DNA from: Escherichia phage VerenaGrendelmeier_Bas101
Length of the DNA: 64,000 bases
Strand: one strand, 5' to 3'
Sequence record: PQ850631.1
Shown: piece after piece, positions 1,429 to 63,012 of the stretch
Layout of the letters: each line of letters opens with the position of its first letter
Position numbering within the stretch: position 1 is the first letter of the stretch
The notes under the pieces: model-generated
The model's input: the letters and a program-made list of their open reading frames with translations, nothing else
Database searches by the model: none
What the model was told of the DNA's origin: nothing
Made by a program: the position numbers and the translations under genes

Positions 1429-1431
1429 CAA

Positions 1432-1671
1432 TCAAAGCATTCCGTGCTGAAGGTCAAGCTTTCTTGCGGCAAACGACCTGGCACGGAATCGCTTACCCGC
1501 TCTCACCGCCTGCCGAATCTTCTTTTGCATACACTTACGGTCAAAATCGTTGCGGTCAACGGCTTCGAGTAAATCCCGACGCAAAGCACCTAGTGTCGCC
1601 TTTTCGGATAATTCCACGCCCAGCGCGGCTGCAACGTCTTTCAAAACATCGAGTTCGGTTAACGTTCTCAT
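1432..1671 (-). CDS. hypothetical small protein with basic C-terminus (second gene of minus-strand cassette)
   Basis: 79-aa ORF; start overlaps stop of upstream minus-strand ORF by 4 bp; C-terminus KKIRQAVRAGKRFRAR is Arg/Lys-rich. Confidence 0.4.
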   Translation of the reverse strand: MRTLTELDVLKDVAAALGVELSEKATLGALRRDLLEAVDRNDFDRKCMQKKIRQAVRAGKRFRARSFAARKLDLQHGML

Positions 1672-2084: not shown

Positions 2085-2112
2085 TTCAATCTCCTTTCGT
2101 TTGGTTAACTAA

Positions 2113-2140
2113 AATATAACTCAAAATGATACAAAAGCAA
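2113..2140 (-). promoter_or_regulatory. sigma70-like promoter (TTGCTT-16-TATATT) for minus-strand cassette
   Basis: read on minus strand: TTGCTT, 16-bp spacer, TATATT, about 30 nt upstream of the RBS of 1668..2084. Confidence 0.45.
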
Positions 2141-2179
2141 AATATTTTATGAACTATTTATGATTACTATACATATCAT

Positions 2180-2208
2180 TTGCTTACAAACACATGAATA
2201 TTTATAAT
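2180..2208 (+). promoter_or_regulatory. sigma70-like promoter (TTGCTT-17-TATAAT) upstream of portal gene
   Basis: -35 TTGCTT 2180-2185, 17-bp spacer, -10 TATAAT 2203-2208. Confidence 0.5.
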
Positions 2209-2246
2209 ATAGATTGATTCCCTTTCACTGTCAGGTGGCGTTAACA

Positions 2247-4622
2247 ATGAAAATTCTTGGCATAAAACTCTGGGAGAAGACGCAACCAGAAGCCGAACCA
2301 GCGGAGATGCCGCCAGGCGACCCATTGGCACCGTTTGAACGCCTGGAAAGGCGCGGCAGCGGCCAACGCTGGGATAAGACCGAAAGCAACCGCCCGACCT
2401 TTAAAACCGTTGATGACTTTCCTTTATATGAGCCTGATATCAACGGGGACGGTGTTGCAATCATTAAAGGTCGCTCAGTAGATTCAGCAACCGTATCCAA
2501 AAAAGTTATGGATAATGCCTTAAAGAACATAAGTTCAGAAGGGCAGGTGAATCCATACACAGTCCCTATTCAGTTGCAAAACTGGTACTTATCGCAATCA
2601 TTTATCGGATATCAAGCTTGCGCCATCATCGCGCAGCACTGGCTAGTGAACAAGGCTTGTTCCATGGTAGGCCGCGATGCGGTCCGTAAAGGCTGGGAAG
2701 TCAAATCCAGCTCTGAGTCGGAATTGTCAGTACAGGCAAGCGAACGCCTAAAGCAAATTGATAAAGAATTTAATATCAAAGAGCACTTAGTTGAAGCCGA
2801 ACGATTCAAGAATATTTTTGGCATCCGCGTCATCATATTTGATGTGCGCAGTGATGACCCAGAATATTATAGCAAACCTTTTAACATCGATGGCGTGACA
2901 AAGGGGTCTTATAAGGGAATCATTCAGGTTGACCCTTATTGGATGATGCCATTCTTGACATCTGAAAACACTGCAGACCCTGCATCACAGCATTTTTATG
3001 ATCCAGAATATTGGGTGATCAGCGGACAACGTTATCACCGCAGCCACCTCATAATCTTGCGCAACGATGAGCCAGCTGATATTCTCAAGCCGACTTATAT
3101 CTATGGCGGCATTCCTTTGACTCAGCAGATTTATGAACGTATCTATGCCGCTGAACGTACCGCTAACGAAGCTCCATTGCTGGCGATGTCTAAGCGTACA
3201 ACCACGCTGCGGACCGACGTTGACAAGGCGATTGCCAATGAGCGGTCGTTTGCCGAACGTTTGATGATGTGGATTAAGTACCGCGACAACTATGCGGTAA
3301 AAGTACTTGGTCAGAAAGAAGAGATGGACCAGTTTGACATCAACTTGTCAGACTTCGACAGCATCATCATGAACCAGTACCAGCTGGTGGCCGCAATCGC
3401 AAAAGTTCCGTCGACAAAACTGTTAGGGACGTCACCTAAAGGCTTTAACGCCACTGGTGAGTTCGAAATGGTCAGCTATCACGAAGAATTGGAGACTTGT
3501 CAGCAGCACGATTTGACGAAGATTCTTGACCGTCACTACAAAATCCTTTTGAAATCTGAAGGTGTTGAAGTCGACGTTAAAGTGGCATGGGAGCCAGTTG
3601 GTTCACTTACTGCTACTCAACTTGCAGAGATTAACGACAAACGAGCGAATACTGGTAAGACTCTCATTGATGCTGGCGTCATCTCCCCTGATGAAGAGCG
3701 CGACCGCATCAAAGACGACAAAAACAGCGGCTACAACCGTTTGCCAGAAGATACAGCAGAAGAAACCCCAGGGATGTCTCCAGAGAATATGGCATTGCTT
3801 GGCAAGTCCGCTGGTGAAGTTCTGCAAGGTAAGGCCGATATTGAACAGGCTAAGGCTGATGTTGTCAAGATGGGCGGCCAGTTCTATAGCGAGACTGGTA
3901 TCATGCCGGAAGGTGCCGCGCGCGGTGAGTTGGCAGAAAACCCTGACAGGGCACCAGTTGAGATTAACATGGATGATACCGATGACGAATCAAGCCATCA
4001 CGTTGATGTTCTAACGCAACTTAAAGAGGGTCTGGAGGGTATTGCTGACTATTACCTTAAAGAAGGTCAGGACGTGGATTTTGACCCTCAAAAAGATGCA
4101 AGGTCGGTGCAACCGTCTACGCTTCCAAGCGTAAAAGGAAATGTCGTAAACTTGCGACACAATGTAGGGAAGATGGATGCCGCATCGCTGCCTAAGATGA
4201 AGTTGCACGGGATGATTCTTGGTATTGAGAATCCTCGCAACAGCATTCGCAGGGGTAACAGTCTTGATGGTGAATGGGCAGTTAAGATGCCGCACCATTA
4301 CGGATTCATCAAAGGAACCAAGGGTGCTGATGGTGATGAAGTCGACTGCTTTGTTGGACCAAATATGAAGTCGCCTAAAGTATTCATCATTAACCAAAAT
4401 GATAATTATTCTGGCGAATTTGATGAACACAAGTGTATGCTTGGATTCGATTCAGCAGAAGAAGCGAAAGAAGCTTATCAGGCATCATTTGGTAACGGTT
4501 GGAATGGATTCGACTCAATCCACGAATTGGATGTAGACTCATTCAAGGAGTGGTTGAAGGGTGATTGCTCTCAAGCATATGGAGCACTCAATAATCCTAC
4601 TAATTCACCGAAGCAAGGTTGA
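2247..4622 (+). CDS. portal-like protein with C-terminal inorganic-pyrophosphatase-like domain
   Basis: large ORF after terminase; start moved to ATG 2247 behind AGGTGG RBS; C-terminal HHYGFIKGT..DGDEVDCFV and AEEAKEAYQASF resemble family I PPase. Confidence 0.55.
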   Translation: MKILGIKLWEKTQPEAEPAEMPPGDPLAPFERLERRGSGQRWDKTESNRPTFKTVDDFPLYEPDINGDGVAIIKGRSVDSATVSKKVMDNALKNISSEGQVNPYTVPIQLQNWYLSQSFIGYQACAIIAQHWLVNKACSMVGRDAVRKGWEVKSSSESELSVQASERLKQIDKEFNIKEHLVEAERFKNIFGIRVIIFDVRSDDPEYYSKPFNIDGVTKGSYKGIIQVDPYWMMPFLTSENTADPASQHFYDPEYWVISGQRYHRSHLIILRNDEPADILKPTYIYGGIPLTQQIYERIYAAERTANEAPLLAMSKRTTTLRTDVDKAIANERSFAERLMMWIKYRDNYAVKVLGQKEEMDQFDINLSDFDSIIMNQYQLVAAIAKVPSTKLLGTSPKGFNATGEFEMVSYHEELETCQQHDLTKILDRHYKILLKSEGVEVDVKVAWEPVGSLTATQLAEINDKRANTGKTLIDAGVISPDEERDRIKDDKNSGYNRLPEDTAEETPGMSPENMALLGKSAGEVLQGKADIEQAKADVVKMGGQFYSETGIMPEGAARGELAENPDRAPVEINMDDTDDESSHHVDVLTQLKEGLEGIADYYLKEGQDVDFDPQKDARSVQPSTLPSVKGNVVNLRHNVGKMDAASLPKMKLHGMILGIENPRNSIRRGNSLDGEWAVKMPHHYGFIKGTKGADGDEVDCFVGPNMKSPKVFIINQNDNYSGEFDEHKCMLGFDSAEEAKEAYQASFGNGWNGFDSIHELDVDSFKEWLKGDCSQAYGALNNPTNSPKQG

Positions 4623-4623
4623 T

Positions 4624-5475
4624 ATGGCTTTTAAAGCTTCGAAAAAACGTGAACGCCGCTCACCCGATAGAATCGGGCGCGGCAGTCCGATAATCCCATC
4701 CAACGCTATTGCGATGGCCTATCGTCGTGAGATGAAAGGTCTTTGCTATGCGATGATTGACGACTATCAAGCAGGAATTGCTGAGTGGCTTGAAAAGAAG
4801 CAGGTGAAAAAGTTCTTTGCGCAAGACTCTGCTGATTCAACTTTTCAGACCTTGATGAAGCGCCTTCAACTGAAATGGGCAAAAGCATTCGCCCGTGTTG
4901 GGTCAAAGATTGCTGCAGATTTCATCAAGTCAGTTGAAAAGGGTGCGACTTCTGCTACATTCGCAAGTCTTAAATCTGCAGGAATAGAAGCGCCAAAAGC
5001 CACATATAATAAATTCGTTGAGAACACTCTTAAAACAAGCGAGACGTTCAACACGACTCTAGTGACTAAGGTTGGCGAGGATATTCACAACAGGGTGTAC
5101 GAAGCGGTGATGCTTTCGCTGACTTCGCCAGACCCAGCGCAGCAAGGCACATCCGGCATTCAGGCGGCACTAAGGAATGTAAAACAATTCTCTGCAAAAC
5201 GCGTAGACCTTATCGCCAAAGACCAAACGAGCAAACTTTATTGCGTATTAAGTGATGAAAGGATGCGACAGAATGGCGTTGAGGAATTTGAGTGGGCGCA
5301 TTCAGGAGCAGGCAAAGAGCCGCGAATATCACATGAGCACGTCGACGGCATGAGATTCAAGCTTGATGACAAACGCTTATGGGAAGTAGGTGGAGAACTT
5401 AAGTTCAAAAAGGGTGACATCGGTCCTCCTGGATGGGCAATACACTGCAAGTGCAGAAAAATACCAATTATCTGA
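4624..5475 (+). CDS. head morphogenesis protein (MuF / SPP1 gp7-like)
   Basis: follows portal; start taken at ATG 4624 just after portal stop; family assignment from position and C-terminal region, not searched. Confidence 0.5.
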   Translation: MAFKASKKRERRSPDRIGRGSPIIPSNAIAMAYRREMKGLCYAMIDDYQAGIAEWLEKKQVKKFFAQDSADSTFQTLMKRLQLKWAKAFARVGSKIAADFIKSVEKGATSATFASLKSAGIEAPKATYNKFVENTLKTSETFNTTLVTKVGEDIHNRVYEAVMLSLTSPDPAQQGTSGIQAALRNVKQFSAKRVDLIAKDQTSKLYCVLSDERMRQNGVEEFEWAHSGAGKEPRISHEHVDGMRFKLDDKRLWEVGGELKFKKGDIGPPGWAIHCKCRKIPII

Positions 5476-5482
5476 GGTCATT

Positions 5483-6403
5483 ATGACGATACCAATCAAC
5501 ACATTCCCTCTATCTGGACAAACTCCAGTCTTGCCTGCGGTGTATGCTAATGGCTTGGCAATTGTCTCAGAATTCACTTCTGATAAAAACTTGATTGTTC
5601 CACTGAGCCCGCCGCTTGCATCAGGGTATAACTCAGTAGGTCAATTCTTTATGATTGGCAATGATGGCGATTCGACCAGCAAGCCTAACCTGACATTGTC
5701 TGTGCCTAAGATGAACATCACAGACGTTCAAACTGGCTTGACTGCATCAACAATCACCATTGCTTTTGGTGAAGCAGTGATCATAGGTATGGAGTCTGGA
5801 GGGTCGAAAAACGCTGTCGCAGTCAAAGTTGTGAAAACCAGCGGCAACCAATACACGTTACCAGCGGCAACAGCTTCCGTTCTTGGTGGCGTCAAAATAG
5901 GCACCGGAATAAGCGTAGCAGGTGATGGTACAATCAGCGTCACCCAATACTCATTGCCGATTGCCTCAGCATCTACTTTAGGCGGCGTAAAGGTCGGTAC
6001 AACTCTATCAATTGATGGGTCTGGTGTGCTTAATGCAGCAGCAAGTACCGTCCAGAATGCCACTAATAGCGTCAGCAATCCTCCAACAACTTTGGTCAAT
6101 CTGGCAACCTTAAACCTTCCTGCAGGGAAATGGCTTGTAACAGCAAGTCAGTTGACTGTCGCGACAGCAGGCGTTCAAGCGAATACCGGAATTACAGTCA
6201 AATTGTCAACAAGCAATTCAGATATTACGGATGATGCATTTGCCATGTCAGCTGGAATTCGGGCTGCAGGTCGCTTCGGCGGCAACATCCCAACAAAAGT
6301 AATTACTCTTGCCGCGCCTGGTAATGTGTATTTAAACTATCAGTGCACCGACGCGTTGACATCTACCGTTTACGGACAGATCACCGCAATTAAGCTGAAC
6401 TAA
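5483..6403 (+). CDS. structural protein with internal tandem repeats
   Basis: start moved to ATG 5483 behind GAGG; two about 30-aa repeats containing LGGVK(I/V)GT. Confidence 0.45.
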   Translation: MTIPINTFPLSGQTPVLPAVYANGLAIVSEFTSDKNLIVPLSPPLASGYNSVGQFFMIGNDGDSTSKPNLTLSVPKMNITDVQTGLTASTITIAFGEAVIIGMESGGSKNAVAVKVVKTSGNQYTLPAATASVLGGVKIGTGISVAGDGTISVTQYSLPIASASTLGGVKVGTTLSIDGSGVLNAAASTVQNATNSVSNPPTTLVNLATLNLPAGKWLVTASQLTVATAGVQANTGITVKLSTSNSDITDDAFAMSAGIRAAGRFGGNIPTKVITLAAPGNVYLNYQCTDALTSTVYGQITAIKLN

Positions 6404-6413
6404 AGAGGAAGTT

Positions 6414-6551
6414 ATGCAAAAGATTATTCAGTCACGTTATGTTAAAGTGCGAAATATTAATTGCAACTCTTTGCTTTCTTGGAAATGGGCTGTTTATGAC
6501 TCGATGTTGATTGGCGTTTTAGTGGCAGGAGTGCTATTTAATATTCACTGA
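6414..6551 (+). CDS. small putative membrane peptide (45 aa)
   Basis: AGAGGAAG RBS then ATG 6414; hydrophobic stretch MLIGVLVAGVLF; not in ORF track (under 60 aa). Confidence 0.3.
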   Translation: MQKIIQSRYVKVRNINCNSLLSWKWAVYDSMLIGVLVAGVLFNIH

Positions 6552-6584
6552 ATTCATCGGCAAAGGATTGCCGCGAGTTTTATA

Positions 6585-6850
6585 CGTATAATGACGTATC
6601 ATCCGTATCAAGTAAGTTGTTGTTTTCAAAAGAATCTTACGGATGATACGCGTTGCCGCCGTACCATATAGGAATTCAAATAAATTAATTTAAAATTATA
6701 TATCTAATTTAATTTTATTTTTTTATAAACTCTTATATATGAAAAGTATCCGTATCATCCGTATCATCCGTAGCACACCAGTGATAGCGCGACTTATACA
6801 CCGATACGGATAAAAATACGCCTCATTTTATCCGTATCATCCGTATCACA
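6585..6850. repeat. control region A: conserved 14-mer CGTATAATGACGTA, 9-bp ATCCGTATC iterons and AT-rich tract
   Basis: 14-mer at 6585-6598; iterons at 6597-6610, 6637-6666 (inverted), 6748-6773 (three tandem units), 6803-6812, 6828-6848; AT-rich 6670-6745. Confidence 0.6.
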
Positions 6851-6905
6851 CTAATAAAGGCGCGGCTATATCGGTTGTTATACATATTCAAACCATAATT
6901 ATTGT

Positions 6906-6934
6906 TTGCCTAAGTTTTTTTCATTAGATATAAT
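6906..6934 (+). promoter_or_regulatory. sigma70-like promoter (TTGCCT-17-TATAAT) for head/tail operon
   Basis: -35 TTGCCT 6906-6911, -10 TATAAT 6929-6934, 24 nt upstream of the start of 6958..8379. Confidence 0.5.
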
Positions 6935-6957
6935 ACACAATACTTATTTGAGGGTGG

Positions 6958-8379
6958 ATGCGAATGCAAACGGCACGCGAAATTGACAAAAATGGATTCT
7001 TGACGATTATGGGTTGTCCAATTTCGTCATTTGGCATTTTTGATTATTCTGCTGGTCAAGTTGGTCTTGATGGTGATCCGAATCGCATCGTAAAAGTCTA
7101 TCGCCCTGAGTCAGCGGTGAAAGACCCCGAAGCGATAGATTCATTCAAAAATATCCCTTTCATCGACAATCACGAAATGCTTTCTGGATTTGAAGGTGAT
7201 GAGGATAACACGGCACCCGAAGAGTATGGTGTCGATGGCGTTCTAACTGGCAATGTTTATTATGACAAGCCATGGATGCGCGGCGACCTTAAAGTGTTCA
7301 GCCGTCGTCTTAAGAAGGCCATTGATTCTGGAAAGGTTGACTTGTCTTTGGGCTATGACTGTGAATTCATCATACAGTCTGGAGAGTTTGACGGGCAGCC
7401 GTATGAAGTGGTGCAGACAACTCTTCGCGGCAACCACATTGCTCTCGTGGACGTTGGTCGAGTACCAGGTGCACGGGTGCTGGATGGTCGTTGCTTTGAC
7501 CATCTTTGTTTGACGACTGTAACACCATCCAACGAGGATTTAGACATGCCAAAACCGTTAAAAGGTAAAGCGCGTGATAATGCTGTTGAACAGCTGAAAT
7601 CACTGATCCCTGCGCTCGAACAATTTCTGAATGAAGAGAGTGCTGAAGCTGCTCATCAGGACGAAGTTGAAGTGAAAGCAGAAGAGAAGGACTCAACCGA
7701 AAATCGTGAAGAAGTAATGGTTGATCCAGAAGTCAAGGCAGAAGCAGAAGAAACCCCAGAAGGTGAAGAGAAGTTTGAAGTTGAAACTGAATCTCACGCT
7801 GACGGCGAACTTCCGCAATTGATCAGCCAAATCGAAGCACTTATTGCAAAACTGAAAGGTGGCGCGGTAGGTGATGAAGAAGAAGTTGAAGCCGAAGTCA
7901 AAGACGAAGAAGAAGTTGAAGTCAAGGCTGAAGATGTATCACCTTGCGACAAAGCTGAAGATGTGGTTAGCGGCCTGCAAAACAGCAACGTAAAGGGGGC
8001 TTCGGTCGAAAAAGATGACAAACCGACAAAAGCGGCGAAAGCGTCGCCAGGTCCAGCAAAAGGGGAACACTCAATGGCATCTGATTCAGCAGTTGCTGCT
8101 TTCTACGCTGATTCTGCTCGTAAGAATAGCCTCTACCAGCGCCTGTCTAAAGTTGTTGGTGCCTTTGATCATGCAACTATGGACTCCAAGTCCGTAGCGA
8201 AATATGGCGCTAAAAAGTTAGGCTTGAAGTGCGTTGATGGTGCTGAGTTTGACGTGGTGGATAATTATCTGCGCGGCGTTGAGCACGGTCAAAAACAGCG
8301 TGTAGTCGCAAAACAAAAGGCCGCTGCGGATTCTGCAGCAACTGACGAAGCATTTGAAGCTTGGTTGAAAGGGGAATAA
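6958..8379 (+). CDS. putative scaffolding / prohead core protein
   Basis: 473 aa; globular N-terminal half, then highly acidic E/V/K-rich repeats (EEVEAEVKDEEEVEVKAED); lies between head-morphogenesis and capsid genes. Confidence 0.45.
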   Translation: MRMQTAREIDKNGFLTIMGCPISSFGIFDYSAGQVGLDGDPNRIVKVYRPESAVKDPEAIDSFKNIPFIDNHEMLSGFEGDEDNTAPEEYGVDGVLTGNVYYDKPWMRGDLKVFSRRLKKAIDSGKVDLSLGYDCEFIIQSGEFDGQPYEVVQTTLRGNHIALVDVGRVPGARVLDGRCFDHLCLTTVTPSNEDLDMPKPLKGKARDNAVEQLKSLIPALEQFLNEESAEAAHQDEVEVKAEEKDSTENREEVMVDPEVKAEAEETPEGEEKFEVETESHADGELPQLISQIEALIAKLKGGAVGDEEEVEAEVKDEEEVEVKAEDVSPCDKAEDVVSGLQNSNVKGASVEKDDKPTKAAKASPGPAKGEHSMASDSAVAAFYADSARKNSLYQRLSKVVGAFDHATMDSKSVAKYGAKKLGLKCVDGAEFDVVDNYLRGVEHGQKQRVVAKQKAAADSAATDEAFEAWLKGE

Positions 8380-8381
8380 AC

Positions 8382-8999
8382 ATGATTTTCCAAACTAGTG
8401 TAGGCCGTCAATATACAACTGGCTTTCCTGGCGACATCGTTCGCGACGGCCCACAGCGTGGGAAGCCAGGCCGAATCGTTAGCGCCAACGACGGTGCAAA
8501 CGTAAACGCCATCAGCCGTGTGTTTGGTTTTAAGGCTGACGTGTCATTAATGGGTACTGGCCAAACCAAAACCTTGGGCGCGCAGGACTTTGAAGTTGAA
8601 CTGGGCGGCACCAATTACTATGGCATCCTTGGCAACAGCAAGCGTTACGCTCTGTATGGCAACTCTACTGGTCCTTTGGGTGCCAGCATGGTTCTGCCTC
8701 AATATAGCGAAGGCGAGTTCTATGATATGTGCACGGGCCTCGTAGTTGAAGTATTCAACCCAAGCACCAGTCCGCAGACGCTGAACTACGGCGACCTGCT
8801 CGCTTATGTACCTAAAGGCATTTCCAGCGGTAACAACCCGAACAACTTGCCTATCGGTGCAATTATCGCCTATACTGGCTCACTGCCAACTGGCATGGTT
8901 GCCATTCCAGGCGGTATCGTGATTGACCCGACTGCTATTGCCCTTTCCGGCCCAAGCGTCCAGTCTTCCACTTATACCATTGTACAATTGACTCGTTAA
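8382..8999 (+). CDS. hypothetical head-associated protein
   Basis: start moved to ATG 8382 behind AAAGGGGA; Gly/Ser/Thr-rich; between scaffold-like and capsid-like genes. Confidence 0.45.
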   Translation: MIFQTSVGRQYTTGFPGDIVRDGPQRGKPGRIVSANDGANVNAISRVFGFKADVSLMGTGQTKTLGAQDFEVELGGTNYYGILGNSKRYALYGNSTGPLGASMVLPQYSEGEFYDMCTGLVVEVFNPSTSPQTLNYGDLLAYVPKGISSGNNPNNLPIGAIIAYTGSLPTGMVAIPGGIVIDPTAIALSGPSVQSSTYTIVQLTR

Positions 9000-9013
9000 T
9001 AGGCAGGTGAATA

Positions 9014-10153
9014 ATGACTCGCATTAGCCAAACACACTCTCGCCTCCCAGCGAGCAAGGTGCGCCCTTTTGATATGCAATCCGTTACTGACGCGGCTGTT
9101 TCCCAGCTTGCTCGTATCGGTATTGTGTTTGATTCCGCGATTGTGCGTGATCAGATTGAGCACTTAAACCGTGCAGGCGCTTTCCGCGTAGGTGACGCCG
9201 CGTTTACTGCGCCGCAGACTACTCCGTCAATCCCGACCCCGTTGCAATTCCTGCAGCAGTGGCTGCCTGGCTTCGTCAAAATCATGACCGCTGCTCGTAA
9301 AATCGACGAGCTGGTTGGTATTGATACCGTTGGTCAGTGGGAAGATGCAGAAATCGTTCAGGGCATCGTTGAACCAGCTGGCACCGCAGTTGAATATGGT
9401 GATTTCACATCTATTCCTCTGGCAAGCTGGAACGTAAACTTTGAACGTCGTTCTATCGTTCGTGGCGAAATGGGCATGGCAGTTGGTATGCTGGAAGAAG
9501 GCCGCGCATCCGCTATGCGTCTGAACTCCGCAGAAACCAAGCGCCAGCAGGCTGCTGTATCTCTGGAAATCATGCGTAACGCAATCGGCTTCTATGGTTG
9601 GTACAACGGGAACAACCGCACATTCGGCTTCCTGAATGATCCAAACCTGCCAGCAGCGATGACTTCCAACACCACTTCCGGCTGGGCTACTGCGACTTTC
9701 CAACAGGTAACTGCAGACATCCGTTTGATGGTTCGTCAAATTCGTGTGAACTCTCAGGACCAGATTGATCCAGAGAAAGTTGACATGACTCTGGCGCTGC
9801 CGACTAACTCTATCGATTGGCTGTCCAACACCACTGACTTCGGTATTTCTGTACGTGACTGGATCACCCAGACTTATCCGAAGATGAAGATCAAATCTGC
9901 ACCGGAACTCAACGGCGCACTTGGCAGTGACCCGACTTTCTTGAACGTGGCATACCTGTACGCCGATCACATCGATTCCTCAATCGATGGTTCAAGCGAT
10001 GATGGTTCCGTATTCAGTCAGCTGGTTCAAACCAAGTTCATGACTCTGGGCGTTGAAAAGCGTGCTAAGAGCTACGTTGAAGACTACGCAAACGCAACAG
10101 CAGGCGTTCTGCTCAAGCGTCCGTTCGCAGTCGTCCGTATGACTGGTATTTAA
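9014..10153 (+). CDS. putative major capsid protein
   Basis: 379-aa ORF after scaffold-like gene, AGGTG RBS, followed by a strong hairpin; assignment by position and size. Confidence 0.5.
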
Positions 10154-10178
10154 TTGCTGTGATTACACAGTAAAACAC

Positions 10179-10208
10179 ATGGGGCGTGGTCGAAAGGCTT
10201 CGCCCCAT
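10179..10208 (+). terminator. stem-loop after capsid gene (no clear U-tract)
   Basis: ATGGGGCG / CGCCCCAT 8-bp stem with 14-nt loop, 26 nt after the capsid stop. Confidence 0.3.
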
Positions 10209-10268
10209 ATCAATAGACCTCAAGGGCTGTAGGGGCTTATCTGAGGCTTATATAAATAGGACTACAAA

Positions 10269-12668: not shown

Positions 12669-14207
12669 GTGATCAGTCAATCTCGTTATATTAAAATTGT
12701 ATCAGGGGTCGGAGCAGGCGCGGCTGTTGCAGTTCGCAAACTGTCGCTTCGCATCATGACTTCCAATACAGTCCTGCCGCCGGGCATTGTAGCAGAATTT
12801 TCAACTGCTGATGCCGTTGGATCATATTTCGGTTTTTCTTCCGAAGAATACAAGCGTGCAGCATTGTATTTTGGATTCATCAGCAAGCAAATCAACTCGC
12901 CTGATTCAATCAGCTTTTCTCGCGTTGTATCCACGGCGATTCCTGCAATGGTTATCGGCGATACTGAGCCTAAAACGCTTGCTACTTTTCAGGCATTCAC
13001 TGGCGCTATCTTAAGCATCACTTATGACGGCACAGACTACCTGACTGACGCCATCAACCTTTCAGCGGCAACAAGCCTTGCCAACGTAGCGGAACTTTTG
13101 GAAACGGCAATCAACACCAAGTTTGCAGCCGAAGGTGGCACGTCGGTGCCTGCACTTGCTGATGCAGAAGTGTATTGGAATGCCAACACCCAGCAGTTCA
13201 CTTTGGAAGCCGCTACGTCGACCGCTGGTGCTGGAAACCTTTCGATTAACGTCACAGGTCAACCGACAGACCCATCTCAGGCGCTTGGTTGGACGACTAC
13301 TGGCACCGTTACGGTTGCTGGCCAGGGTGTAGCAAGTCCGGTAGAAGCCATCGCGGCATCTGTGGAGATTTCCAACAACTTTGGCTCATTCCTTTTCGCT
13401 GGAGCAGACCGAACGCTGGAAGAAATCACAGCCGTTGCAGCTTGGACTCACTCGCAGAACAATATGTACATGTATCTGTTCTCGACTGCATTCGCCAACA
13501 TTGGCTCATACTATACCGCACTGAAAGGTTACTCAGGCGTTGGTATGATGATCCGTGCAACCAACCTTGCGAATGATTACATCGACCAGGCACCTGCTGA
13601 AATTCTCGCGGCGACAAACTATAATACTGTAAATGCAACTCAAAACTACATGTACTATCAGTTTGACACGCGAAATGTTACTGTATCGACTGATTCACGC
13701 GCAGATACTGCTGATCAAAACCGTGCAAACTATATCGGCGCTACTCAGCAAGCTGGTCAAACGCTCGCGTTCTTCCAGCGTGGTGTTCTGATGGGCGGGT
13801 CTACCGCAGCAGTTGACATGAACACTTATGCCAACGAGATGTGGCTTAAATCTGCTATTACTTCTCAGCTGTTCAGCATGTTCTTGAATCTTGGTCGCGT
13901 GCCTGCAAACGAAGAAGGCAAAGCGACTGTCCAAGCCATGATTCAAGTTGCTGTTGACAATGCGAAGGTTAACGGCACCATCTCTGTCGGTAAGGCGCTG
14001 ACGGAAATTCAGAAACAGTACATCACGCAAACCTCCGGTGACAACACTGCTTGGCGGCAGGTTGAGACTATCGGTTATTGGTTGACTGTCGATTTTGACA
14101 CTGAAACCACTTCCGATAACCGCACCGAATACTATGCAACATACACGCTAATCTACTCTAAAGATGATGCTGTGCGTCGCGTTGAAGGTCGTGACGTTCT
14201 TATTTAA
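12669..14207 (+). CDS. putative tail sheath protein
   Basis: 512-aa ORF immediately upstream of tube-like gene; assignment by order and size. Confidence 0.45.
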   Translation: MISQSRYIKIVSGVGAGAAVAVRKLSLRIMTSNTVLPPGIVAEFSTADAVGSYFGFSSEEYKRAALYFGFISKQINSPDSISFSRVVSTAIPAMVIGDTEPKTLATFQAFTGAILSITYDGTDYLTDAINLSAATSLANVAELLETAINTKFAAEGGTSVPALADAEVYWNANTQQFTLEAATSTAGAGNLSINVTGQPTDPSQALGWTTTGTVTVAGQGVASPVEAIAASVEISNNFGSFLFAGADRTLEEITAVAAWTHSQNNMYMYLFSTAFANIGSYYTALKGYSGVGMMIRATNLANDYIDQAPAEILAATNYNTVNATQNYMYYQFDTRNVTVSTDSRADTADQNRANYIGATQQAGQTLAFFQRGVLMGGSTAAVDMNTYANEMWLKSAITSQLFSMFLNLGRVPANEEGKATVQAMIQVAVDNAKVNGTISVGKALTEIQKQYITQTSGDNTAWRQVETIGYWLTVDFDTETTSDNRTEYYATYTLIYSKDDAVRRVEGRDVLI

Positions 14208-14254
14208 ATAATTGCCGCCGTAACTGGCGGCCATCTCTCTGAGAGGAATCTGTA

Positions 14255-14722
14255 ATGATTAACGTTTCCGGTTTTGGCGCTTCGATTCGTTTGGTAGCAT
14301 CAAACACTTTCCCTAATGGTGTGACCCTTTCTGATTTTGCAGATGATGCTGATCCGATTGACGCGCCGGACCTGCAAATCTCTGAGGCTGCAATGGGCCT
14401 TAACGGTGACTTAGTAGTGTGGAACCGTGCAAACCCGCTTGAAGTAGGTGTGAACATCATCCCTACTTCTGAAAGTGATGTTAACTTGGACGTTCTTGCA
14501 GCTGCAAACCGCGTAGGCAAGCGCAAGAACTCCGCAAAAGACGTGATCACACTTGTGCTGACTTATCCTTCTGGAATGGTTATCACGCTAAACAAAGGCA
14601 CCTTGACAACTGGTTCAGTAATTCCTGGCATCCAGTCTCAAGGTCGTGTGAAAACACGTCAATATCGCTTCAAGTTTGAGAACGTAGTCAAAACTGGCGT
14701 GAGCAACCAAGAGATTTTATAA
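14255..14722 (+). CDS. putative tail tube protein
   Basis: 155 aa, N-terminus MINVSGFGASIRLVA; homologous to 15673..16170. Confidence 0.45.
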   Translation: MINVSGFGASIRLVASNTFPNGVTLSDFADDADPIDAPDLQISEAAMGLNGDLVVWNRANPLEVGVNIIPTSESDVNLDVLAAANRVGKRKNSAKDVITLVLTYPSGMVITLNKGTLTTGSVIPGIQSQGRVKTRQYRFKFENVVKTGVSNQEIL

Positions 14723-15051
14723 TGTATCAAATACCACTTGACAGCGTACCTAACCAGAATATCAGCTTTAACGTTGACGGTGCATATTGGCAGTTGCACA
14801 TTTTTGCCGCTATCGAGCATATGTGTGCCGACGTATATCGCAATGGTGAACTTTTGATTCAAGGGGTGCGCTGTTTTGGTGGTATCCCAATGGTGCCTTA
14901 TAAGTATCTCATGATTGGGTACGGTAATTTCATTTTCGACAGCGTACCTGATTATGAAAGGTTTAACTCAGGCGGCTGTAATCTATATTACATGTCAGAA
15001 TCTGAGTTGGCTGAATTCCAGGCCACTGCTGAAGCGGAGTTTGCAATTTGA
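14722..15051 (+). CDS. hypothetical tail protein
   Basis: 109-aa ORF, start/stop coupled. Confidence 0.4.
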   Translation: MYQIPLDSVPNQNISFNVDGAYWQLHIFAAIEHMCADVYRNGELLIQGVRCFGGIPMVPYKYLMIGYGNFIFDSVPDYERFNSGGCNLYYMSESELAEFQATAEAEFAI

Positions 15052-15404
15052 CAACTCTAACCATTGAAGTGAACGAAAATAATGACCTTTTTCTACCTGA
15101 TGGAAGAAACTTAAATATTCTTTCAGGAGAAAAAGCGATGGTGCAAGTAATCAAGGCCGCGCATCAGATGCGACTTGGTGAAGACTTGTACGATATAGAA
15201 AACGGGGTCGATTATTTGGGGACCGTTTTCAAGTCGCCCGTTGACGAAGACGGTGCGCGAAAGTCGATTGCAGATGCTATTCTGAAGAAAGCAGACGTTG
15301 CCGGAATCGACTCATTGACTGTCACCATCCAAAACGGTATCCTTGGATTCACTGCAGAAGTGGTGACTATTTATGGCGAACGTATAAAGGTGAGTAATCA
15401 ATAA
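15048..15404 (+). CDS. hypothetical tail protein
   Basis: 118-aa ORF. Confidence 0.4.
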   Translation: MTTLTIEVNENNDLFLPDGRNLNILSGEKAMVQVIKAAHQMRLGEDLYDIENGVDYLGTVFKSPVDEDGARKSIADAILKKADVAGIDSLTVTIQNGILGFTAEVVTIYGERIKVSNQ

Positions 15405-59021: not shown

Positions 59022-59310
59022 CGTATAATGACGTAAGATTTGGACCTATCCGTAGTTCACTCCACACACTTCTATGGTGCGCCGCGACTGGGTTCAGTGG
59101 TACATCTTACGGATGATACGGATGATACGCGTCGCCGCTATACTTTATACAACTTTGAAAAAAACAATTAACTCCATTTTGAATTAATTTAAATTAATTT
59201 TTTTCTACATCCTCATACTTATACTAAACTTATATTTATACGTATTATCCGTAAGATATAAGTAAAAACAAAGACTTGCGGCAATACGGATGATACGTCA
59301 CGATACGCTT
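59022..59310. repeat. control region B: same 14-mer CGTATAATGACGTA, iterons and AT-rich tract as region A
   Basis: 14-mer 59022-59035; CTTACGGATGATACGGATGATACGCGTCGCCGCTA 59107-59140 matches 6637-6666; iteron copies at 59046-59055, 59243-59257, 59282-59307; AT-rich 59145-59240. Confidence 0.6.
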
Positions 59311-59472
59311 CAACCAGCCAGCAGCGGCTAAGTCATTGATTTGCATAACAAGCGACGAAAGGGATGGATTTCTTTTATACGTATCAAACAGTACACCACG
59401 CACCACGGTCCGTTATCCATCCAGCACTATGATTTGTGTACGTTTATAGCCATAATGAACATCAATCTGCAC

Positions 59473-59501
59473 TTGAATATAATGTCCATCCATTGTATAA
59501 T
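59473..59501 (+). promoter_or_regulatory. sigma70-like promoter (TTGAAT-17-TATAAT)
   Basis: -35 59473-59478, -10 59496-59501 with TG immediately upstream. Confidence 0.4.
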
Positions 59502-59521
59502 TCACACTATTAATTTGCACT

Positions 59522-60010
59522 ATGGGATTTTGCACTATGAGTCAAGATTATGTAGCGATGCCTGAAGACTTTGAAGACCCGCGATTCGCAGAGCACAATC
59601 AGGCTTTATTCGATGAGTTCATTGACCTTGTTATTCAGGGCCATGACATGCGCGCAGCTTTTGCACTAGTATTTGGAATGGAAGTTGCAACGGATAACTA
59701 CACTGGCCAGCGAATCCTTTGCACGCAACGCAATCCATACTACAAGATGCGCTTCAAAAAGCGTATGGAAGAGATGCCACTCAAGGATTTGTGGAGCGTA
59801 AAAGGTGCAATTCACAATTTGGTCAAGCTTGTGCGTGATCCAGAAGTCGCGGCGTCAGCCAAGCTTAATGCTATTCGTGAACTGAATATCATCTATGGCA
59901 TCACGATGATTGATGAAAACGGCAATAGTAAAATGGGCCGTTCTATGGACGATTTCTACAAGGATTTTGGAGAGGCGGCCAAAGAAGGCGAGCAATTCTC
60001 CCGCCACTAG
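59522..60010 (+). CDS. hypothetical protein
   Basis: 162-aa ORF; start region overlaps two TTTGCACTAT copies; start codon uncertain (59522 or 59537). Confidence 0.4.
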   Translation: MGFCTMSQDYVAMPEDFEDPRFAEHNQALFDEFIDLVIQGHDMRAAFALVFGMEVATDNYTGQRILCTQRNPYYKMRFKKRMEEMPLKDLWSVKGAIHNLVKLVRDPEVAASAKLNAIRELNIIYGITMIDENGNSKMGRSMDDFYKDFGEAAKEGEQFSRH

Positions 60011-60029
60011 CCAATTTGCACTATAAAAC

Positions 60030-60063
60030 GGCCCTAGAACACATTGTCTCCACTTCTAGGGCC
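60030..60063 (+). terminator. hairpin after 59522..60010 (weak U-tract)
   Basis: GGCCCTAGAA / TTCTAGGGCC 10-bp stem with 14-nt loop. Confidence 0.35.
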
Positions 60064-60124
60064 ATCGGTAATACGACGGGGAAGGTTGCAACCGTAAACG
60101 CGTTAGAAAGTGTATTATTATAAG

Positions 60125-60388
60125 TCATCTTTTAGTCACCTTACGTAACAATTTACGACCTTCAACCGTCCAATCGAACGACTCCACCAGCAGATTCGCA
60201 CTATAACCTAAGATGATGCGCCCTTTCTCGTTATCGACCCGCCAACAAGTCTCGAATAGCATTCGATTTGCACTATTAACTATCGCCGCAACGCGCGTTG
60301 GGTAAACGCAATTTGCACTATGGTCGTAAAGGGATAAGGTGCGACCACTTCCGATGGACAATGTAGCGATGAGAATAAGCGTATTCAT
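60125..60388 (-). CDS. hypothetical small protein
   Basis: 87-aa ORF; three in-frame TTTGCACTAT copies translate as SAN tripeptides; weak support. Confidence 0.3.
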   Translation of the reverse strand: MNTLILIATLSIGSGRTLSLYDHSANCVYPTRVAAIVNSANRMLFETCWRVDNEKGRIILGYSANLLVESFDWTVEGRKLLRKVTKR

Positions 60389-60438
60389 AAGCCACCAATT
60401 TGCACTATGAAAAGCGACCCCGAAGGGCCGCCATTCGA

Positions 60439-61065
60439 TTAGATAATCTGGAATGTGTAGGACTTGTTGCCGAACTCAAAGTTCAAGCGTCCAGCTTCTT
60501 TAAGCTTCATGCGGAAGCGAATGTGCTTACTATCCGGTAAGCCCAGCGCGGCGAACGCCACGCGGACCGATTTGAACTCGCCTACACCCTCGACCATAAC
60601 GCCGTTACGCGTGAGACGCTTTTGCGCCACTTCCTTGTTATCCCAACTTTTTGCAATACCTTCGCTATTCGAACGGCGATGGGAAGGAGTTCCATTTTGC
60701 ACTACGCAATTTGCACTATCGTTTAGGCCGCTTTTAACGAAGGCTTCATACTCTTCGTCGGTCATCGCGTCGAGTTCTTCCTGGGTCGGCTCGGCCTTTT
60801 TAACGACCGCACGCGCCTTATGCGTTTTTACATCGCTGGACACTTCCTCGCGCGGCTTCGCGTCGGGAATGGGCGATTCGTTGGACGGCTCATCGAGCGC
60901 GTTTAAGGACTCGATTAACGCGATTACGCGAGTCTCGGCGGTACGGCGGTCCGCAAATTTCTTAATCGGCTTCGAACCGGAATTTGCATTATAAAATGCA
61001 ACGAGGTCGGCGGTCTTAGTTGCGATAACGTCGCCGCTAGTCGAGAAACGATTTAAGCTAACCAT
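60439..61065 (-). CDS. hypothetical protein
   Basis: 208 aa; conserved initiation region ATAGGAGTTCATT-ATG. Confidence 0.45.
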   Translation of the reverse strand: MVSLNRFSTSGDVIATKTADLVAFYNANSGSKPIKKFADRRTAETRVIALIESLNALDEPSNESPIPDAKPREEVSSDVKTHKARAVVKKAEPTQEELDAMTDEEYEAFVKSGLNDSANCVVQNGTPSHRRSNSEGIAKSWDNKEVAQKRLTRNGVMVEGVGEFKSVRVAFAALGLPDSKHIRFRMKLKEAGRLNFEFGNKSYTFQII

Positions 61066-61145
61066 AATGAACTCCTATTTGTTAGGGCGCTAGGCGCGAA
61101 AGAATTTTATTAAAGCGCCGCGCGCGACGCTCTAAAAATCCTCTC

Positions 61146-61460
61146 TTACTCTTCGTCGTCTTCGATTAATTCGAGGGCGAAGGCGTAAGCTTTGCTATCG
61201 TAATTAACTAAAACGGCGAGTTCGAACTCGTTAATAAACGCCGTTTTACCGCATAAATTTAATTCCGCATCGACTTCGAAGAATCCGTTTTCGTCGCGCT
61301 CTAAGCGAGAAGCAGCGAGTTGCTCGATTACCGTCGCGTCGTTAATTTCTTCGCCTAAGCGAACGCCGGAGAATTTCGCGAGAATTTCGCCGTAAGTAAG
61401 CGTAACGCCCTGGACTTCGGCGGTTGCGTTTTCGAGGGTAAAGCGGGTAACGATAGCCAT
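61146..61460 (-). CDS. small acidic protein
   Basis: 104 aa ending LIEDDEE; conserved initiation region CTAGGAGTTTATT-ATG. Confidence 0.45.
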   Translation of the reverse strand: MAIVTRFTLENATAEVQGVTLTYGEILAKFSGVRLGEEINDATVIEQLAASRLERDENGFFEVDAELNLCGKTAFINEFELAVLVNYDSKAYAFALELIEDDEE

Positions 61461-61600
61461 AATAAACTCCTAGTTGGGAGAGGCGTTAACGACCTATTCG
61501 TTAACTCATCCCGTCCCGATATGAGTACATTATAATATAGTGTAGAAAAAAGTAAAGCACTTTTTCGATAAAAATGCGATAAATTATTTTATCTTTTTTC

Positions 61601-61628
61601 TTTACTTCTTCGTACACTCGCGTATACT
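61601..61628 (+). promoter_or_regulatory. sigma70-like promoter (TTTACT-16-TATACT)
   Basis: within direct repeat CTTTACTTCTTCGTACACT also found at 62003. Confidence 0.45.
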
Positions 61629-61684
61629 TGTTTATATCGAGACGGGCGATGGCCCTTCCTTCTACTAGCATCGGGAGTTTTATT

Positions 61685-61987
61685 ATGACCACTTTAATCT
61701 CTTCTATCCTTACTTACGACGAAGACCGTTTAACCGTTCGCTCTCTTATCGCCGCCGTTAACGCGGAACTAGAATCCACCATTATTAAGGTCCGCGCGGT
61801 CGCTTTCGTCGGCCTTTCCTTCGACGATATTAAGTACGCCGAACGTAGCGCCATCCGCTTCGCGAAGACCGACGACGAAGCCGTTACCCTTATCGAGACG
61901 GTTACGCCGCGCGGCGAAGCGTTAATTATCGTCGAGTATATCGACGTAGAAGGCGATAAGGCTTATAAATATTTTATTGCAGAATAA
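61685..61987 (+). CDS. small acidic protein
   Basis: start at ATG 61685 behind GGGAGTTTTATT; 100 aa. Confidence 0.45.
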   Translation: MTTLISSILTYDEDRLTVRSLIAAVNAELESTIIKVRAVAFVGLSFDDIKYAERSAIRFAKTDDEAVTLIETVTPRGEALIIVEYIDVEGDKAYKYFIAE

Positions 61988-61998
61988 CGAAAAAGTGC

Positions 61999-62027
61999 TT
62001 TACTTCTTCGTACACTAAGACTATAAT
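61999..62027 (+). promoter_or_regulatory. sigma70-like promoter (TTTACT-17-TATAAT)
   Basis: -35 61999-62004, -10 62022-62027; paralogous to promoter at 61601. Confidence 0.5.
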
Positions 62028-62094
62028 GTTTTATATCGAGAGGGGATGAGGTAGCGAATAGGTCGCTACCCGCCCGACCAACTAGGAGATTATT

Positions 62095-62385
62095 ATGATT
62101 ACTTTAGCCGCTATCCGTTCCGCTCGCGTCGAGACTTCCGAAAACTCTAACGTATTTGGCGAAACCTTAGAGAGCGTTTATCTCTCTAACGTAGACGCAA
62201 CTATCGAACCTATTTATGAGCCGATCAACTTCCTCGACCTTTACAAGTATCGCGACGAGGACATCGTATCATCCCGCGTAACGATTAACGGCTTCGTCTA
62301 TACGATTACCGAAATCGGCGGCGAATATCTCGCTGTACCGCAACTCGGCGGCGAAGTAACTTATTTTAAAATTGTCTCCTTATAA
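62095..62385 (+). CDS. small acidic protein
   Basis: 96 aa; conserved initiation region CTAGGAGATTATT-ATG; 5' UTR hairpin GGTAGCG / CGCTACC 62050-62070. Confidence 0.45.
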   Translation: MITLAAIRSARVETSENSNVFGETLESVYLSNVDATIEPIYEPINFLDLYKYRDEDIVSSRVTINGFVYTITEIGGEYLAVPQLGGEVTYFKIVSL

Positions 62386-62404
62386 TATCCTTCCGTTACT
62401 AATA

Positions 62405-62430
62405 GGCCGCGCTTAGTCGCGGCTTTTCTT
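62405..62430 (+). terminator. rho-independent terminator
   Basis: GCCGCG / CGCGGC stem, 6-nt loop, then TTTTCTT. Confidence 0.55.
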
Positions 62431-62549
62431 CGTCCCTATCTCGATGCGCTTCTCCGCGAAAACTCCTTTATCCTTCCCTTCGTCGTCGCATAATCTTCGT
62501 CGAGATGCGCCTTAGTTCGCATAACAGGTATTACGTTAAATGGAGAACA

Positions 62550-63012
62550 TCGCGTAAGTCCTTGTTTTATATAGACACCTATATCGGACCGTTAGGGCGG
62601 GTCGCGTAAGTCGTTGTTTTATAAAGGCGCAAAACTTTCCCTTCGTTCCGAACTAAAACGAGGAATATGCCGACCCTTCGCCCGAAAATAGTACGCATGC
62701 GAAATCACATGCATCTCGAATAATCCCCACCGATATTATCCTACACGCAATCATTCGCTTTCGAATCATTATGCTTCATATTATTATGCGTCGAATCATT
62801 CGCTTTCGAATTGTAACGCTGGAAACTGTAACGGCGATTGATTATTGCGTTCGTGTGGTTTTTAGGGCATGGGTCTTTTGGTGCGTTTTGGTGCTTGATG
62901 GAATTTGCGGTACACTAATCAAAATACGACACATTTGGTCCACTAACTTTTCAAAGAAAAAGTCCTAGACAGTACCGTACTATTTTGTACCCACAGGAAT
63001 TTGCAGTACACT
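62550..63012. repeat. non-coding region with three families of direct repeats
   Basis: TCGCGTAAGTCnTTGTTTTATA at 62550 and 62602; AATCATTCGCTTTCGAAT at 62749 and 62794; GGAATTTGCrGTACACT at 62900 and 62996. Confidence 0.55.

Follow-up and report, generated by a model that had tools for sequence, protein, structure and literature searches.

TG/CA-purged DNA in the terminal repeat of a Wifcevirus and a possible pre-early module of small genes

Four small genes in a Wifcevirus genome

Four small genes lie at positions 60,439 to 62,385 of a 64,000-nucleotide stretch of Escherichia phage VerenaGrendelmeier_Bas101 (sequence record PQ850631.1), which we analysed at its full length and call the window. 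They raise the question of what a compact group of genes behind host-type promoters does for the phage, and of why its DNA differs from that around it. A first reading of the letters alone (the original prediction) had described one island with a common initiation sequence and had proposed, as an inference, that it encodes DNA-mimic anti-restriction or anti-defence proteins. All four genes are present, with the predicted sizes and strands:

60439..61065, minus strand: 208-aa basic protein (isoelectric point, pI, 8.9), a PB1-like core gene (phrog_4730; two-domain model)
61146..61460, minus strand: 104-aa acidic protein (pI 4.07), in a slot that differs among strains
61685..61987, plus strand: 100-aa acidic protein (pI 4.55), with zero Gln, His, Cys, or Trp
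62095..62385, plus strand: 96-aa acidic protein (pI 4.23), with two alleles that are 66% identical

The window shares 94–97% identity with phages of Escherichia and Shigella that belong to the genus Wifcevirus, distant relatives of the Pseudomonas PB1-like phages. By sequence, the source phage is thus a Wifcevirus, an E. coli myovirus of 68 kb. The real surprise of the locus is a dinucleotide purge, conserved beside co-oriented Chi sites in three genera.

The island has lost TG and CA

The purge defines a zone that does not coincide with the limits of the genes:

60700..62750, no strand: zone of about 2 kb purged of TG and CA and enriched in CpG and TpA, with TG/CA observed/expected ratios (o/e) of 0.37–0.40 against 1.17

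In the island, the o/e is 0.37 for TG and 0.40 for CA, against 1.17 elsewhere in the window. CpG stands at 2.06 against 1.10 and TpA at 1.18 against 0.67, with G+C unchanged (0.475 vs 0.461). Comparison with the rest of the genome, using 226 control windows of equal length, sets the island clearly apart: its TG+CA density is 0.042, against 0.146 ± 0.007 in the controls (minimum 0.125; z = -14). The island had been predicted to be CpG-richer than its flanks; this is so (z = +8.5 in the same controls), but the underlying signal is a strand-symmetric loss of TG and CA.

The unit of the purge is the dinucleotide, because the eight trinucleotides that contain TG or CA are also the eight most depleted (ratios of 0.11–0.50). 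Their loss is offset by gains of CG and TA, i.e., by transitions at either base of the step, and both TG and CA are depleted on the sense strand of every island gene. DNA without the two dinucleotides excludes 45% of the possible 5-mers and 53% of the 6-mers. The island itself has 12–17% fewer distinct 5- and 6-mers than the controls (414 vs 471 ± 6 for the 5-mers).

The purge spans genes, spacers, promoters, and non-coding DNA (62386–62750). Its left edge, at about 60700, falls within the 208-aa gene: the TG+CA density along this gene is 0.048, 0.081, and then 0.106, and the purge is confined to the 5' part. The last gene and its terminator end about 370 bp before the right edge, which is itself some 200–300 bp short of the right boundary of the terminal repeat described below. 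The effects reach the junctions between codons and the composition of the proteins. Codons starting with G are preceded by T at a frequency of 0.09 in the island, against 0.36, and by C at 0.67, against 0.28; C before codons starting with A has a frequency of 0.10, against 0.32. The codons CTG, TTG, CCA, and ACA are absent from the island genes. Gln, His, Cys, and Trp, all of whose codons contain TG or CA, jointly account for 0–3% of the residues in the small proteins, where the mean is 8%. The promoters themselves avoid the two dinucleotides, because their -35 elements read TTTACT and not TTGACA.

Two kinds of word avoidance were rejected as causes of the island. The purge is not a general avoidance of palindromes or restriction sites, because sites free of TG and CA keep their normal frequency (TCGA, TTAA, CGCG, GGWCC, and AGACC are undepleted). 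Avoidance of CRISPR protospacer adjacent motifs was discarded as well, with AAG/CTT and CC/GG unchanged. We found no description of such a purge in the searchable literature. As a separate matter, several words have no copy in the whole 64 kb (CCGCGG, GGTACC, CCCGGG, GGATCC, AGCGCT, RGGNCCY, GGTCTC, and CGGCCG), and the genome-wide absence of 6-bp words is classical restriction-site avoidance.

The island lies in the terminal repeat and the purge recurs in relatives

The four genes are within the direct terminal repeat (DTR) of the phage, because the repeats of two relatives map across them. Both ends of the record of phage WFC share an exact direct repeat of 3784 bp, which corresponds to 59187–62959 of the window, and the repeat predicted by PhageTerm for phage Mansfield (3673 bp) corresponds to 59176–62878:

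59176..62959, no strand: DTR, from the exact WFC repeat and the PhageTerm repeat of Mansfield
59522..60010, plus strand: 162-aa gene, annotated as small terminase subunit in Mansfield, of normal composition

From left to right, the DTR holds this small-terminase-like gene, an 87-aa gene, the four island genes, and about 570 bp of non-coding DNA.

The purge occupies positions ~1500–3450 of the repeat in Wifcevirus (repeat 1–3784), ~200–2000 in MyoSmar (1–3559), and ~1400–3400 in MTx (1–3566). In each lineage with a mapped repeat (Wifcevirus and two Serratia phages), it comes to within 200–300 bp of one boundary of the repeat. The island of Serratia phage SMP is equally purged (TG 0.16–0.30, CA 0.11–0.30, CpG up to 2.35), and the SMP paralogues of the 208-aa family have a TG+CA density of 0.028 inside the island and 0.132 outside. 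Pantoea phage PA1 also has a purged island, which adjoins its homologue of the 208-aa gene. Across these three genera, which infect Enterobacterales (phages of Escherichia, Serratia, and Pantoea), the purge adjoins co-oriented Chi sites. Their small genes are mostly unrelated, with the exception of the 104-aa protein and its PA1 homologue, and nearly all encode acidic proteins. Relatives from Pseudomonas, Xanthomonas, and environmental samples lack a purged zone within 8 kb of the 208-aa homologue.

Strand symmetry, unchanged G+C, and fixed geometry count against foreign origin, RNA selection, and mutational bias, which are therefore disfavoured as causes of the purge. A recently acquired cassette that kept the composition of its donor would account for the sharp difference from the rest of the genome, for the orphan small genes, and for the one slot that varies between strains. 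We regard this as extremely unlikely, because the boundary of the purge cuts the 208-aa core gene, which is vertically inherited, and because the alternative slot genes and the 66%-identical alleles are purged to an equal degree. Mostly unrelated small genes of three genera are, moreover, purged at the same position of the repeat, and we know of no genome that combines a CpG o/e of about 2 with a TG/CA o/e of about 0.3.

Selection could also act on RNA or transcription, by avoiding pauses at U|G, internal NTG starts, TGA stops, or the sites of toxin endoribonucleases in transcripts that are needed very quickly. Every start codon (NTG) contains TG, the classical his and ops pauses occur at U-G, and the ribosome-binding sites (RBSs) of the island are the strongest in the genome. 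Wifceviruses are, besides, reported to replicate unusually fast (PMC11990801). Yet all island genes are on one strand in SMP and in MyoSmar, and both TG and CA are depleted there. That the one-strand island of SMP loses TG and CA alike disfavours selection on RNA or on polymerase pausing. The purge also continues through promoters and through non-coding DNA past the terminator, and CTG, the commonest leucine codon of E. coli, is dropped for TTA and CTC, contrary to what selection for translation speed would produce. We thus consider a cause at the level of RNA very improbable indeed.

A mutational footprint might have arisen by context-dependent deamination, by biased mismatch repair in heteroduplexes between repeats, or by transcription-associated mutagenesis. 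Transitions would suffice, since the loss of TG and CA is almost exactly balanced by CG (about two-thirds) and TA (about one-third), and the present-day deficit of changes that create TG or CA is only weak. Transition processes specific to a context exist, such as repeat-induced point mutation in fungi, which acts at CpA (PMC2621366). Still, a single context would have to undergo two opposite transitions (T to C and G to A at TG), the G+C content is the same in the island as elsewhere, and the effect is confined to a part of the repeat whose boundaries lie at a like distance from the repeat end across genera. In the polymorphism between strains, CpG transitions are half as frequent as other transitions at C or G, the opposite of the mutational prediction. 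These observations make a mutational origin very unlikely.

Iterons and Chi sites beside the purged zone

The inner side of the purged zone carries an array of repeats and, interleaved with it, Chi sites:

59513..60992, plus strand: about 10 co-oriented iterons (ATTTGCACTAT), inside and between genes
60184..60191, minus strand: exact Chi (GCTGGTGG)
60004..60011, minus strand: one-mismatch Chi octamer (GCTAGTGG), in the same orientation as Chi

Iterons with at most one mismatch occur only in this array within the 64 kb, and several of them are preceded by Chi or Chi-like words. The ATTTGCACTAT motif is repeated at the equivalent place in PA1 (about 8300–10200 of its sequence), and MyoSmar carries a different repeat, TACAAAGCATGCTTATTTTTT, three times. 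By sequence, the iterons are candidates for terminase-binding sites, an injection stop, or regulator sites.

The positions of Chi and of its one-mismatch variant are conserved in six further Wifcevirus genomes. Exact co-oriented copies number four in MyoSmar, four in MTx, five in SMP, and seven in PA1, while Wifcevirus has one, plus GCTAGTGG. They form clusters at 2107–2454 in MyoSmar, 179–1283 in MTx, 13947–15132 in SMP, and 8322–9901 in PA1 (each in the coordinates of its own sequence). The orientation of the sites is the one recognised by RecBCD when it travels from the far DTR boundary toward the island. A Chi cluster in a phage terminal repeat next to a Chi-free purged zone has no description that we could find in the searchable literature.

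This arrangement bears on the possibility that the purge serves another property of double-stranded DNA, with no relation to defence. This might be the mechanics of the end in packaging or ejection, the need to keep away or attract a DNA-binding protein (the 208-aa protein or a nucleoid protein of the host), a lack of spurious promoters, or recombination between the repeats involving Chi and RecA. The zone is at a fixed distance from the repeat boundary, beside iterons and Chi clusters, and a probable DNA-binding protein is always encoded in it or next to it. Total pyrimidine–purine steps are unchanged (about 0.25 of the dinucleotides), so that just the one step that is not self-complementary has been replaced. 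Nearly all consensus elements of E. coli sigma factors contain TG or CA. Against such a role, none of the known mechanisms of packaging, ejection, or recombination reads a dinucleotide, and a zone filled with genes pays for the purge in amino-acid composition. It would also leave unexplained the difference in phenotype between EcoP1_I and EcoCFT_II (see below), which follows directly from site content. We rate this possibility as unlikely.

Restriction sites in the repeat match the published restriction phenotype

Wifceviruses resist type I, II, and III restriction by a mechanism that is not known (PMC11990801). Those of the BASEL collection resist EcoKI, EcoCFT_I, EcoRI, EcoRV, and EcoCFT_II and are very sensitive to EcoP1_I alone, although the genome of Bas98 has 93 sites for EcoCFT_II and 82 for EcoP1_I (PMC11990801). 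The published recognition site of EcoCFT_II, a type III system, is shown only in a figure of the BASEL paper; we deduced it to be CACAG, the sole 5-mer whose counts are 93 for Bas98 and 115 for Bas97.

We mapped the sites of these systems in the DTRs of Bas98, Bas99, and Bas100. The repeats have no EcoRI, EcoRV, or EcoAI-type site, 0–1 EcoKI sites, and 0–1 copies of CACAG, for about 5 expected. They contain 5–7 copies of AGACC (EcoP1_I), in both orientations. In these maps, a cleavable set of sites in the DTR exists for EcoP1_I alone, which is also the only system that restricts the phages; the match is a correlation over six systems. In T5-like phages, restriction works only via sites in the terminal repeat, as shown experimentally (PMC10644984). 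The missing restriction sites of the island may explain why Wifceviruses resist most restriction enzymes.

A possible pre-early module on the first-exposed DNA

The explanation that we favour, with moderate confidence, is that the island is a module like the T5 pre-early region. It would sit on the DNA that is exposed first, be hardened against nucleases with sequence specificity, and encode proteins for host takeover or against restriction. We infer that its genes are early from their position and promoters. The DTR would meet the host before the phage has made any protein, and the purge would result from selection on double-stranded DNA. Because it removes about half of the possible 5–6-bp recognition sequences, the purged DNA could survive restriction until its products are made, and the Chi sites could meanwhile shield it from RecBCD. 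The small acidic orphans, possibly with a DNA-binding 208-aa protein, would then take over the host or protect the remaining genome. Such a scheme would follow that of the first-step-transfer region in phage T5. Since the island must survive until its products are made, a restriction system would stop the phage only if it had a cleavable set of sites inside the repeat.

Several observations weigh against this explanation. Over nine strains, variants that create TG or CA are barely under-represented (64 vs 78 ± 7 expected, P = 0.02), so present-day selection per site is weak. The purge is limited to the right 55% of the DTR, and in the island AGACC, GGWCC, AAGCTT, and TCGA, which lack TG and CA, are as frequent as elsewhere. 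Sites for EcoRI, EcoRV, and the type I systems are expected less than once in 3.8 kb anyway; the correlation with the phenotype is carried mainly by CACAG versus AGACC. Two arguments on the direction of entry conflict: the orientation of Chi would have the far end lead, whereas packaging logic (the end packaged last is usually ejected first, and the small-terminase-like gene is at the far end) would have the near end enter first. Promoter matches of at least 10 of the 12 consensus positions occur about 24 times in the window. Finally, the early region of T7 is unpurged and the first-step DNA of T5 carries a different signature, and we rejected the idea that a purge is a general rule for early-entering DNA.

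How far does this support the anti-defence role of the original prediction? By context, it does: the genes lie in the DTR, behind host-type promoters and the strongest RBSs of the genome, the small proteins are orphans, one slot varies among strains, and Wifceviruses are published as resistant to restriction. The support does not extend to the mechanism, and DNA mimicry gained none. The small proteins have no match to Ocr or ArdA, or in Pfam, PHROG, or PDB, a tblastn search of the window with Ocr gave no match, and the AlphaFold2 model of the 104-aa protein (from a 4-sequence alignment) has a mean predicted local distance difference test (pLDDT) of 45. Mimics of the Ocr or ArdA type block type I and bacteriophage exclusion (BREX) systems. 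The resistance of Wifceviruses also covers the type II enzymes EcoRI and EcoRV.

A bolder idea, which we put forward only tentatively and hold to be less probable than its contrary, is that the first-exposed DNA has a stealth design written in its sequence: erasure of TG and CA would leave about half of the possible restriction specificities without a target, a Chi cluster would shield the DNA from RecBCD, and the orphan acidic proteins would form a new anti-restriction system, effective against types I, II, and III. If true, this would be an undescribed general way for a virus to survive before its first protein, and it would account for the restriction resistance of Wifceviruses.

Some consequences would be of practical use. 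The site map of the DTR makes the published puzzle of resistance testable, because it points to the particular synonymous edits that should turn sensitivity on or off. The T5 logic, in which the content of the terminal repeat decides restriction, would extend to myoviruses that are relatives of the therapeutic PB1-like phages. A handful of orphan genes of about 100 residues become the candidates for a broad anti-restriction function, one that still lacks an assigned gene in T5 too. As the purge overrides codon preference, amino-acid content, and the -35 consensus, it would be an unusually clear case of selection on DNA words. Its signature (TG/CA o/e below 0.4, CpG o/e of about 2, adjoining Chi clusters) could be used to search for first-entering DNA and early anti-defence genes.

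Comparison with known systems

The closest parallel is T5. Both phages have a set of genes in a long DTR, with host-type promoters and small proteins mostly of unassigned function, and in both the repeat has its own dinucleotide signature. T5 is likewise resistant to type I, II, and III restriction unless sites are in the repeat (PMC10644984). The two signatures differ in kind, and that of T5 is much weaker: in its first-step DNA (T5 1–10219) CpG o/e is 1.34 against 0.79 and GpC 1.58 against 1.08, AG/CT and GA/TC are lowered to about 0.7–0.8 of the rest, and TG/CA is normal. The T5 repeat has about 10 kb, the Wifcevirus one 3.8 kb with a special zone of 2 kb. T5-like phages are resistant to EcoP1 also when the repeat contains its sites, unlike Wifceviruses. 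Two-step transfer with an injection stop is a feature of T5, for which the iteron array of Wifcevirus would be no more than a candidate stop. Homologues of A1, A2, Dmp, or other T5 pre-early proteins gave no tblastn match at E < 0.01 in the window, and none longer than 62 residues.

The T5 parallel also suggests that the purge might spare the DNA that is expressed first from one of the phage's own nucleases, one that acts early, has a short specificity, and destroys the host DNA. The first-step DNA of T5 must survive an A1-dependent degradation of host DNA, and the means by which that DNA is spared by A1 are acknowledged as an unsolved problem (bioRxiv 10.64898/2026.04.02.716235). The signal in the island has the features expected of such a cause, being at the level of double-stranded DNA, strand-symmetric, and position-specific. 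Phage nucleases with short specificities exist; T4 endonuclease IV, for instance, cleaves TCA, and among the trinucleotides of the island TCA/TGA ranks second in depletion. Conversely, family and homology searches show no nuclease-like gene in the island or the repeat, and the literature that we examined holds no report of host DNA degradation by these phages. The rest of the 64 kb, where TG and CA are normal, would be cut unless entry has two steps or the DNA is modified. An own nuclease is thus quite unlikely as the cause.

Like the island, the early region of T7 (gene 0.3, Ocr) encodes small, very acidic proteins at the genome end that enters the cell, downstream of several strong promoters of the host type. 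The T7 proteins have no sequence similarity to the island proteins, which reach a charge of -0.15 per residue at best, against -0.24 for Ocr, and T7 early DNA has normal TG/CA. Ocr inhibits type I enzymes, whereas Wifcevirus resistance includes EcoRI and EcoRV. The terminal redundancy of the Bacillus phage SPO1 resembles the island in being a host-takeover cluster of small genes with strong early promoters and RBSs. It differs, to our knowledge, in its host, in having about 24 genes, in encoding unrelated proteins, and in that no dinucleotide purge has been reported for it.

Classical restriction-site avoidance is also selection on DNA words that leaves proteins intact. It removes particular words of 4–6 bp throughout a genome, whereas the island has lost one dinucleotide pair over 2 kb, and, unlike classical avoidance, so strongly that amino-acid composition and promoter sequence are altered. 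Chi-dependent protection of linear DNA from RecBCD was reportedly described by Dabert et al. in 1992 and Kuzminov et al. in 1994. The repeat has in common with it that co-oriented Chi octamers separate a DNA end from the DNA that is to be kept, with the difference that Wifcevirus has just one exact Chi and one octamer with a mismatch. The repeat had no match in Rfam.

Promoters, leaders, and hairpins

The two plus-strand genes had been predicted to have paralogous promoters, and we indeed found two identical copies of the 19-mer CTTTACTTCTTCGTACACT (61600–61618 and 61998–62016), both of which score as TTTACT-16/17-TATACT/TATAAT promoters. A third, minus-strand cassette had been missed:

61601..61628, plus strand: predicted promoter P1 of the 100-aa gene, TTTACT-16-TATACT, sigma-70-type match
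61999..62027, plus strand: predicted promoter P2 of the 96-aa gene, TTTACT-17-TATAAT, sigma-70-type match
61529..61556, minus strand: third paralogous sigma-70-type promoter, TTTACT-16-TATAAT, ahead of the 104-aa gene
61485..61505, minus strand: 8-bp hairpin in the 5' untranslated region, GTTAACGA-ATAGG-TCGTTAAC, minus-strand cassette
62050..62070, plus strand: 8-bp hairpin in the 5' untranslated region, GGTAGCGA-ATAGG-TCGCTACC, P2 cassette
61066..61146, minus strand: strong RNA hairpin between the 104-aa and 208-aa genes, -31.3 kcal/mol, z = -4.0
62404..62425, plus strand: hairpin like an intrinsic terminator, 3' of the 96-aa gene, also annotated in WFC and Mansfield

All three promoters are conserved in 10 genomes, and the one on the minus strand, ahead of the 104-aa gene, probably also drives the 208-aa gene. 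The minus-strand cassette and that of the 96-aa gene are inverted repeats of about 110 nt that include promoter, leader hairpin, and RBS. Two pair changes between the leader hairpins are compensatory, with pairing retained. The hairpin between the 104-aa and 208-aa genes, which none of 200 shuffled sequences matched in folding, is a candidate attenuator, terminator, or processing site.

That genes share an initiation sequence is a by-product of the duplication of a whole regulatory cassette. The sequence had been given for all four genes, in a formula one base too long. TAGGAG-N6-ATG is found at three of them: the 208-aa (TAGGAGTTCATTATG), 104-aa (TAGGAGTTTATTATG), and 96-aa (TAGGAGATTATTATG) genes, with the spacers TTCATT, TTTATT, and ATTATT. 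The 100-aa gene differs and has CGGGAGTTTTATTATG, i.e., CGGGAG-N7-ATG. In the whole window, TAGGAG followed by ATG at 5–8 nt occurs at these three genes and in one N7 case at 56163.

Proteins of the island

The four genes do not form one set. The 208-aa gene stands outside the small acidic genes because its product is basic and probably DNA-binding, and because it is a core gene of the wider PB1-like lineage, with 832 representative clusters in the family. Its predicted structure has two domains (pLDDT 85) with weak matches to NUMOD-like or winged-helix-like folds, which are small DNA-binding folds and suggest, on the model, that the protein probably binds DNA; that its targets are the iterons is speculation. 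Searches of the four proteins in Pfam, PHROG, and PDB sequences gave nothing useful other than phrog_4730 for this protein, with zero matches for the three small ones.

The three small proteins have the low pI values expected from their description as strongly acidic, but only the 104-aa protein is an outlier. Among the 88 open reading frames (ORFs) of the window, a quarter of which have a pI below 4.8, it ranks as the most acidic, while the 100-aa and 96-aa proteins are merely in the lower quartile. Net charges are -15.5, -7.5, and -8.5 for the 104-aa, 100-aa, and 96-aa proteins, or -0.149, -0.075, and -0.088 per residue, against -0.240 for Ocr.

The 100-aa gene is present in all 28 Wifcevirus records and was found nowhere else in the homologue search, and the 104-aa gene is in 10 of the 28. 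Apart from the PA1 homologue of the 104-aa protein (E = 8e-7), we found no relatives of the three small proteins outside Wifcevirus-type contigs, and none of the T5 pre-early or T7 early proteins is similar to them. The variable slot is filled by the 104-aa gene in some strains and by a 94-aa gene, paralogous to the 96-aa one (hhalign 82%, E = 1e-5), in others; it can also be empty, as in RCIP0319. A single family for all the small proteins was rejected, and only the paralogy of the 96-aa and 94-aa genes is supported. In SP13 and ECML-117, about 230 bp of extra DNA follow the 3' end of the 96-aa gene, and in SP13 (3191–3400 of its sequence) they carry an annotated 69-aa basic ORF.

Other features of the repeat

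The 87-aa gene (60125–60388, minus strand), downstream of the 208-aa gene, encodes a basic protein (pI 9.7) with a hydrophobic N-terminus (MNTLILIATLSIGSG...), which may be a secreted or membrane protein; its TG/CA is lowered in part only (0.110). Just 5' of the small-terminase-like gene and beside the first iterons, two overlapping promoter-like sites each match 10 of 12 positions (59456–59501, plus strand: TGAACA-16-TATAAT and TTGAAT-17-TATAAT).

Short repeats occur at both DTR boundaries (59101–59297 and 62900–63012) and may be cutting signals for the terminase. ATACGGATGATACG is found three times around the left boundary at 59176, with an inverted copy, and GGAATTTGCGGTACACT and GGAATTTGCAGTACACT flank the right boundary at 62959. 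The non-coding end of the purged zone (62550–62626 and 62733–62820) has two pairs of direct repeats: one reads TCGCGTAAGTC(C/G)TTGTTTTATA(T/A)AG, and the other is a 43-nt unit with AATCATTCGCTTTCGAAT.

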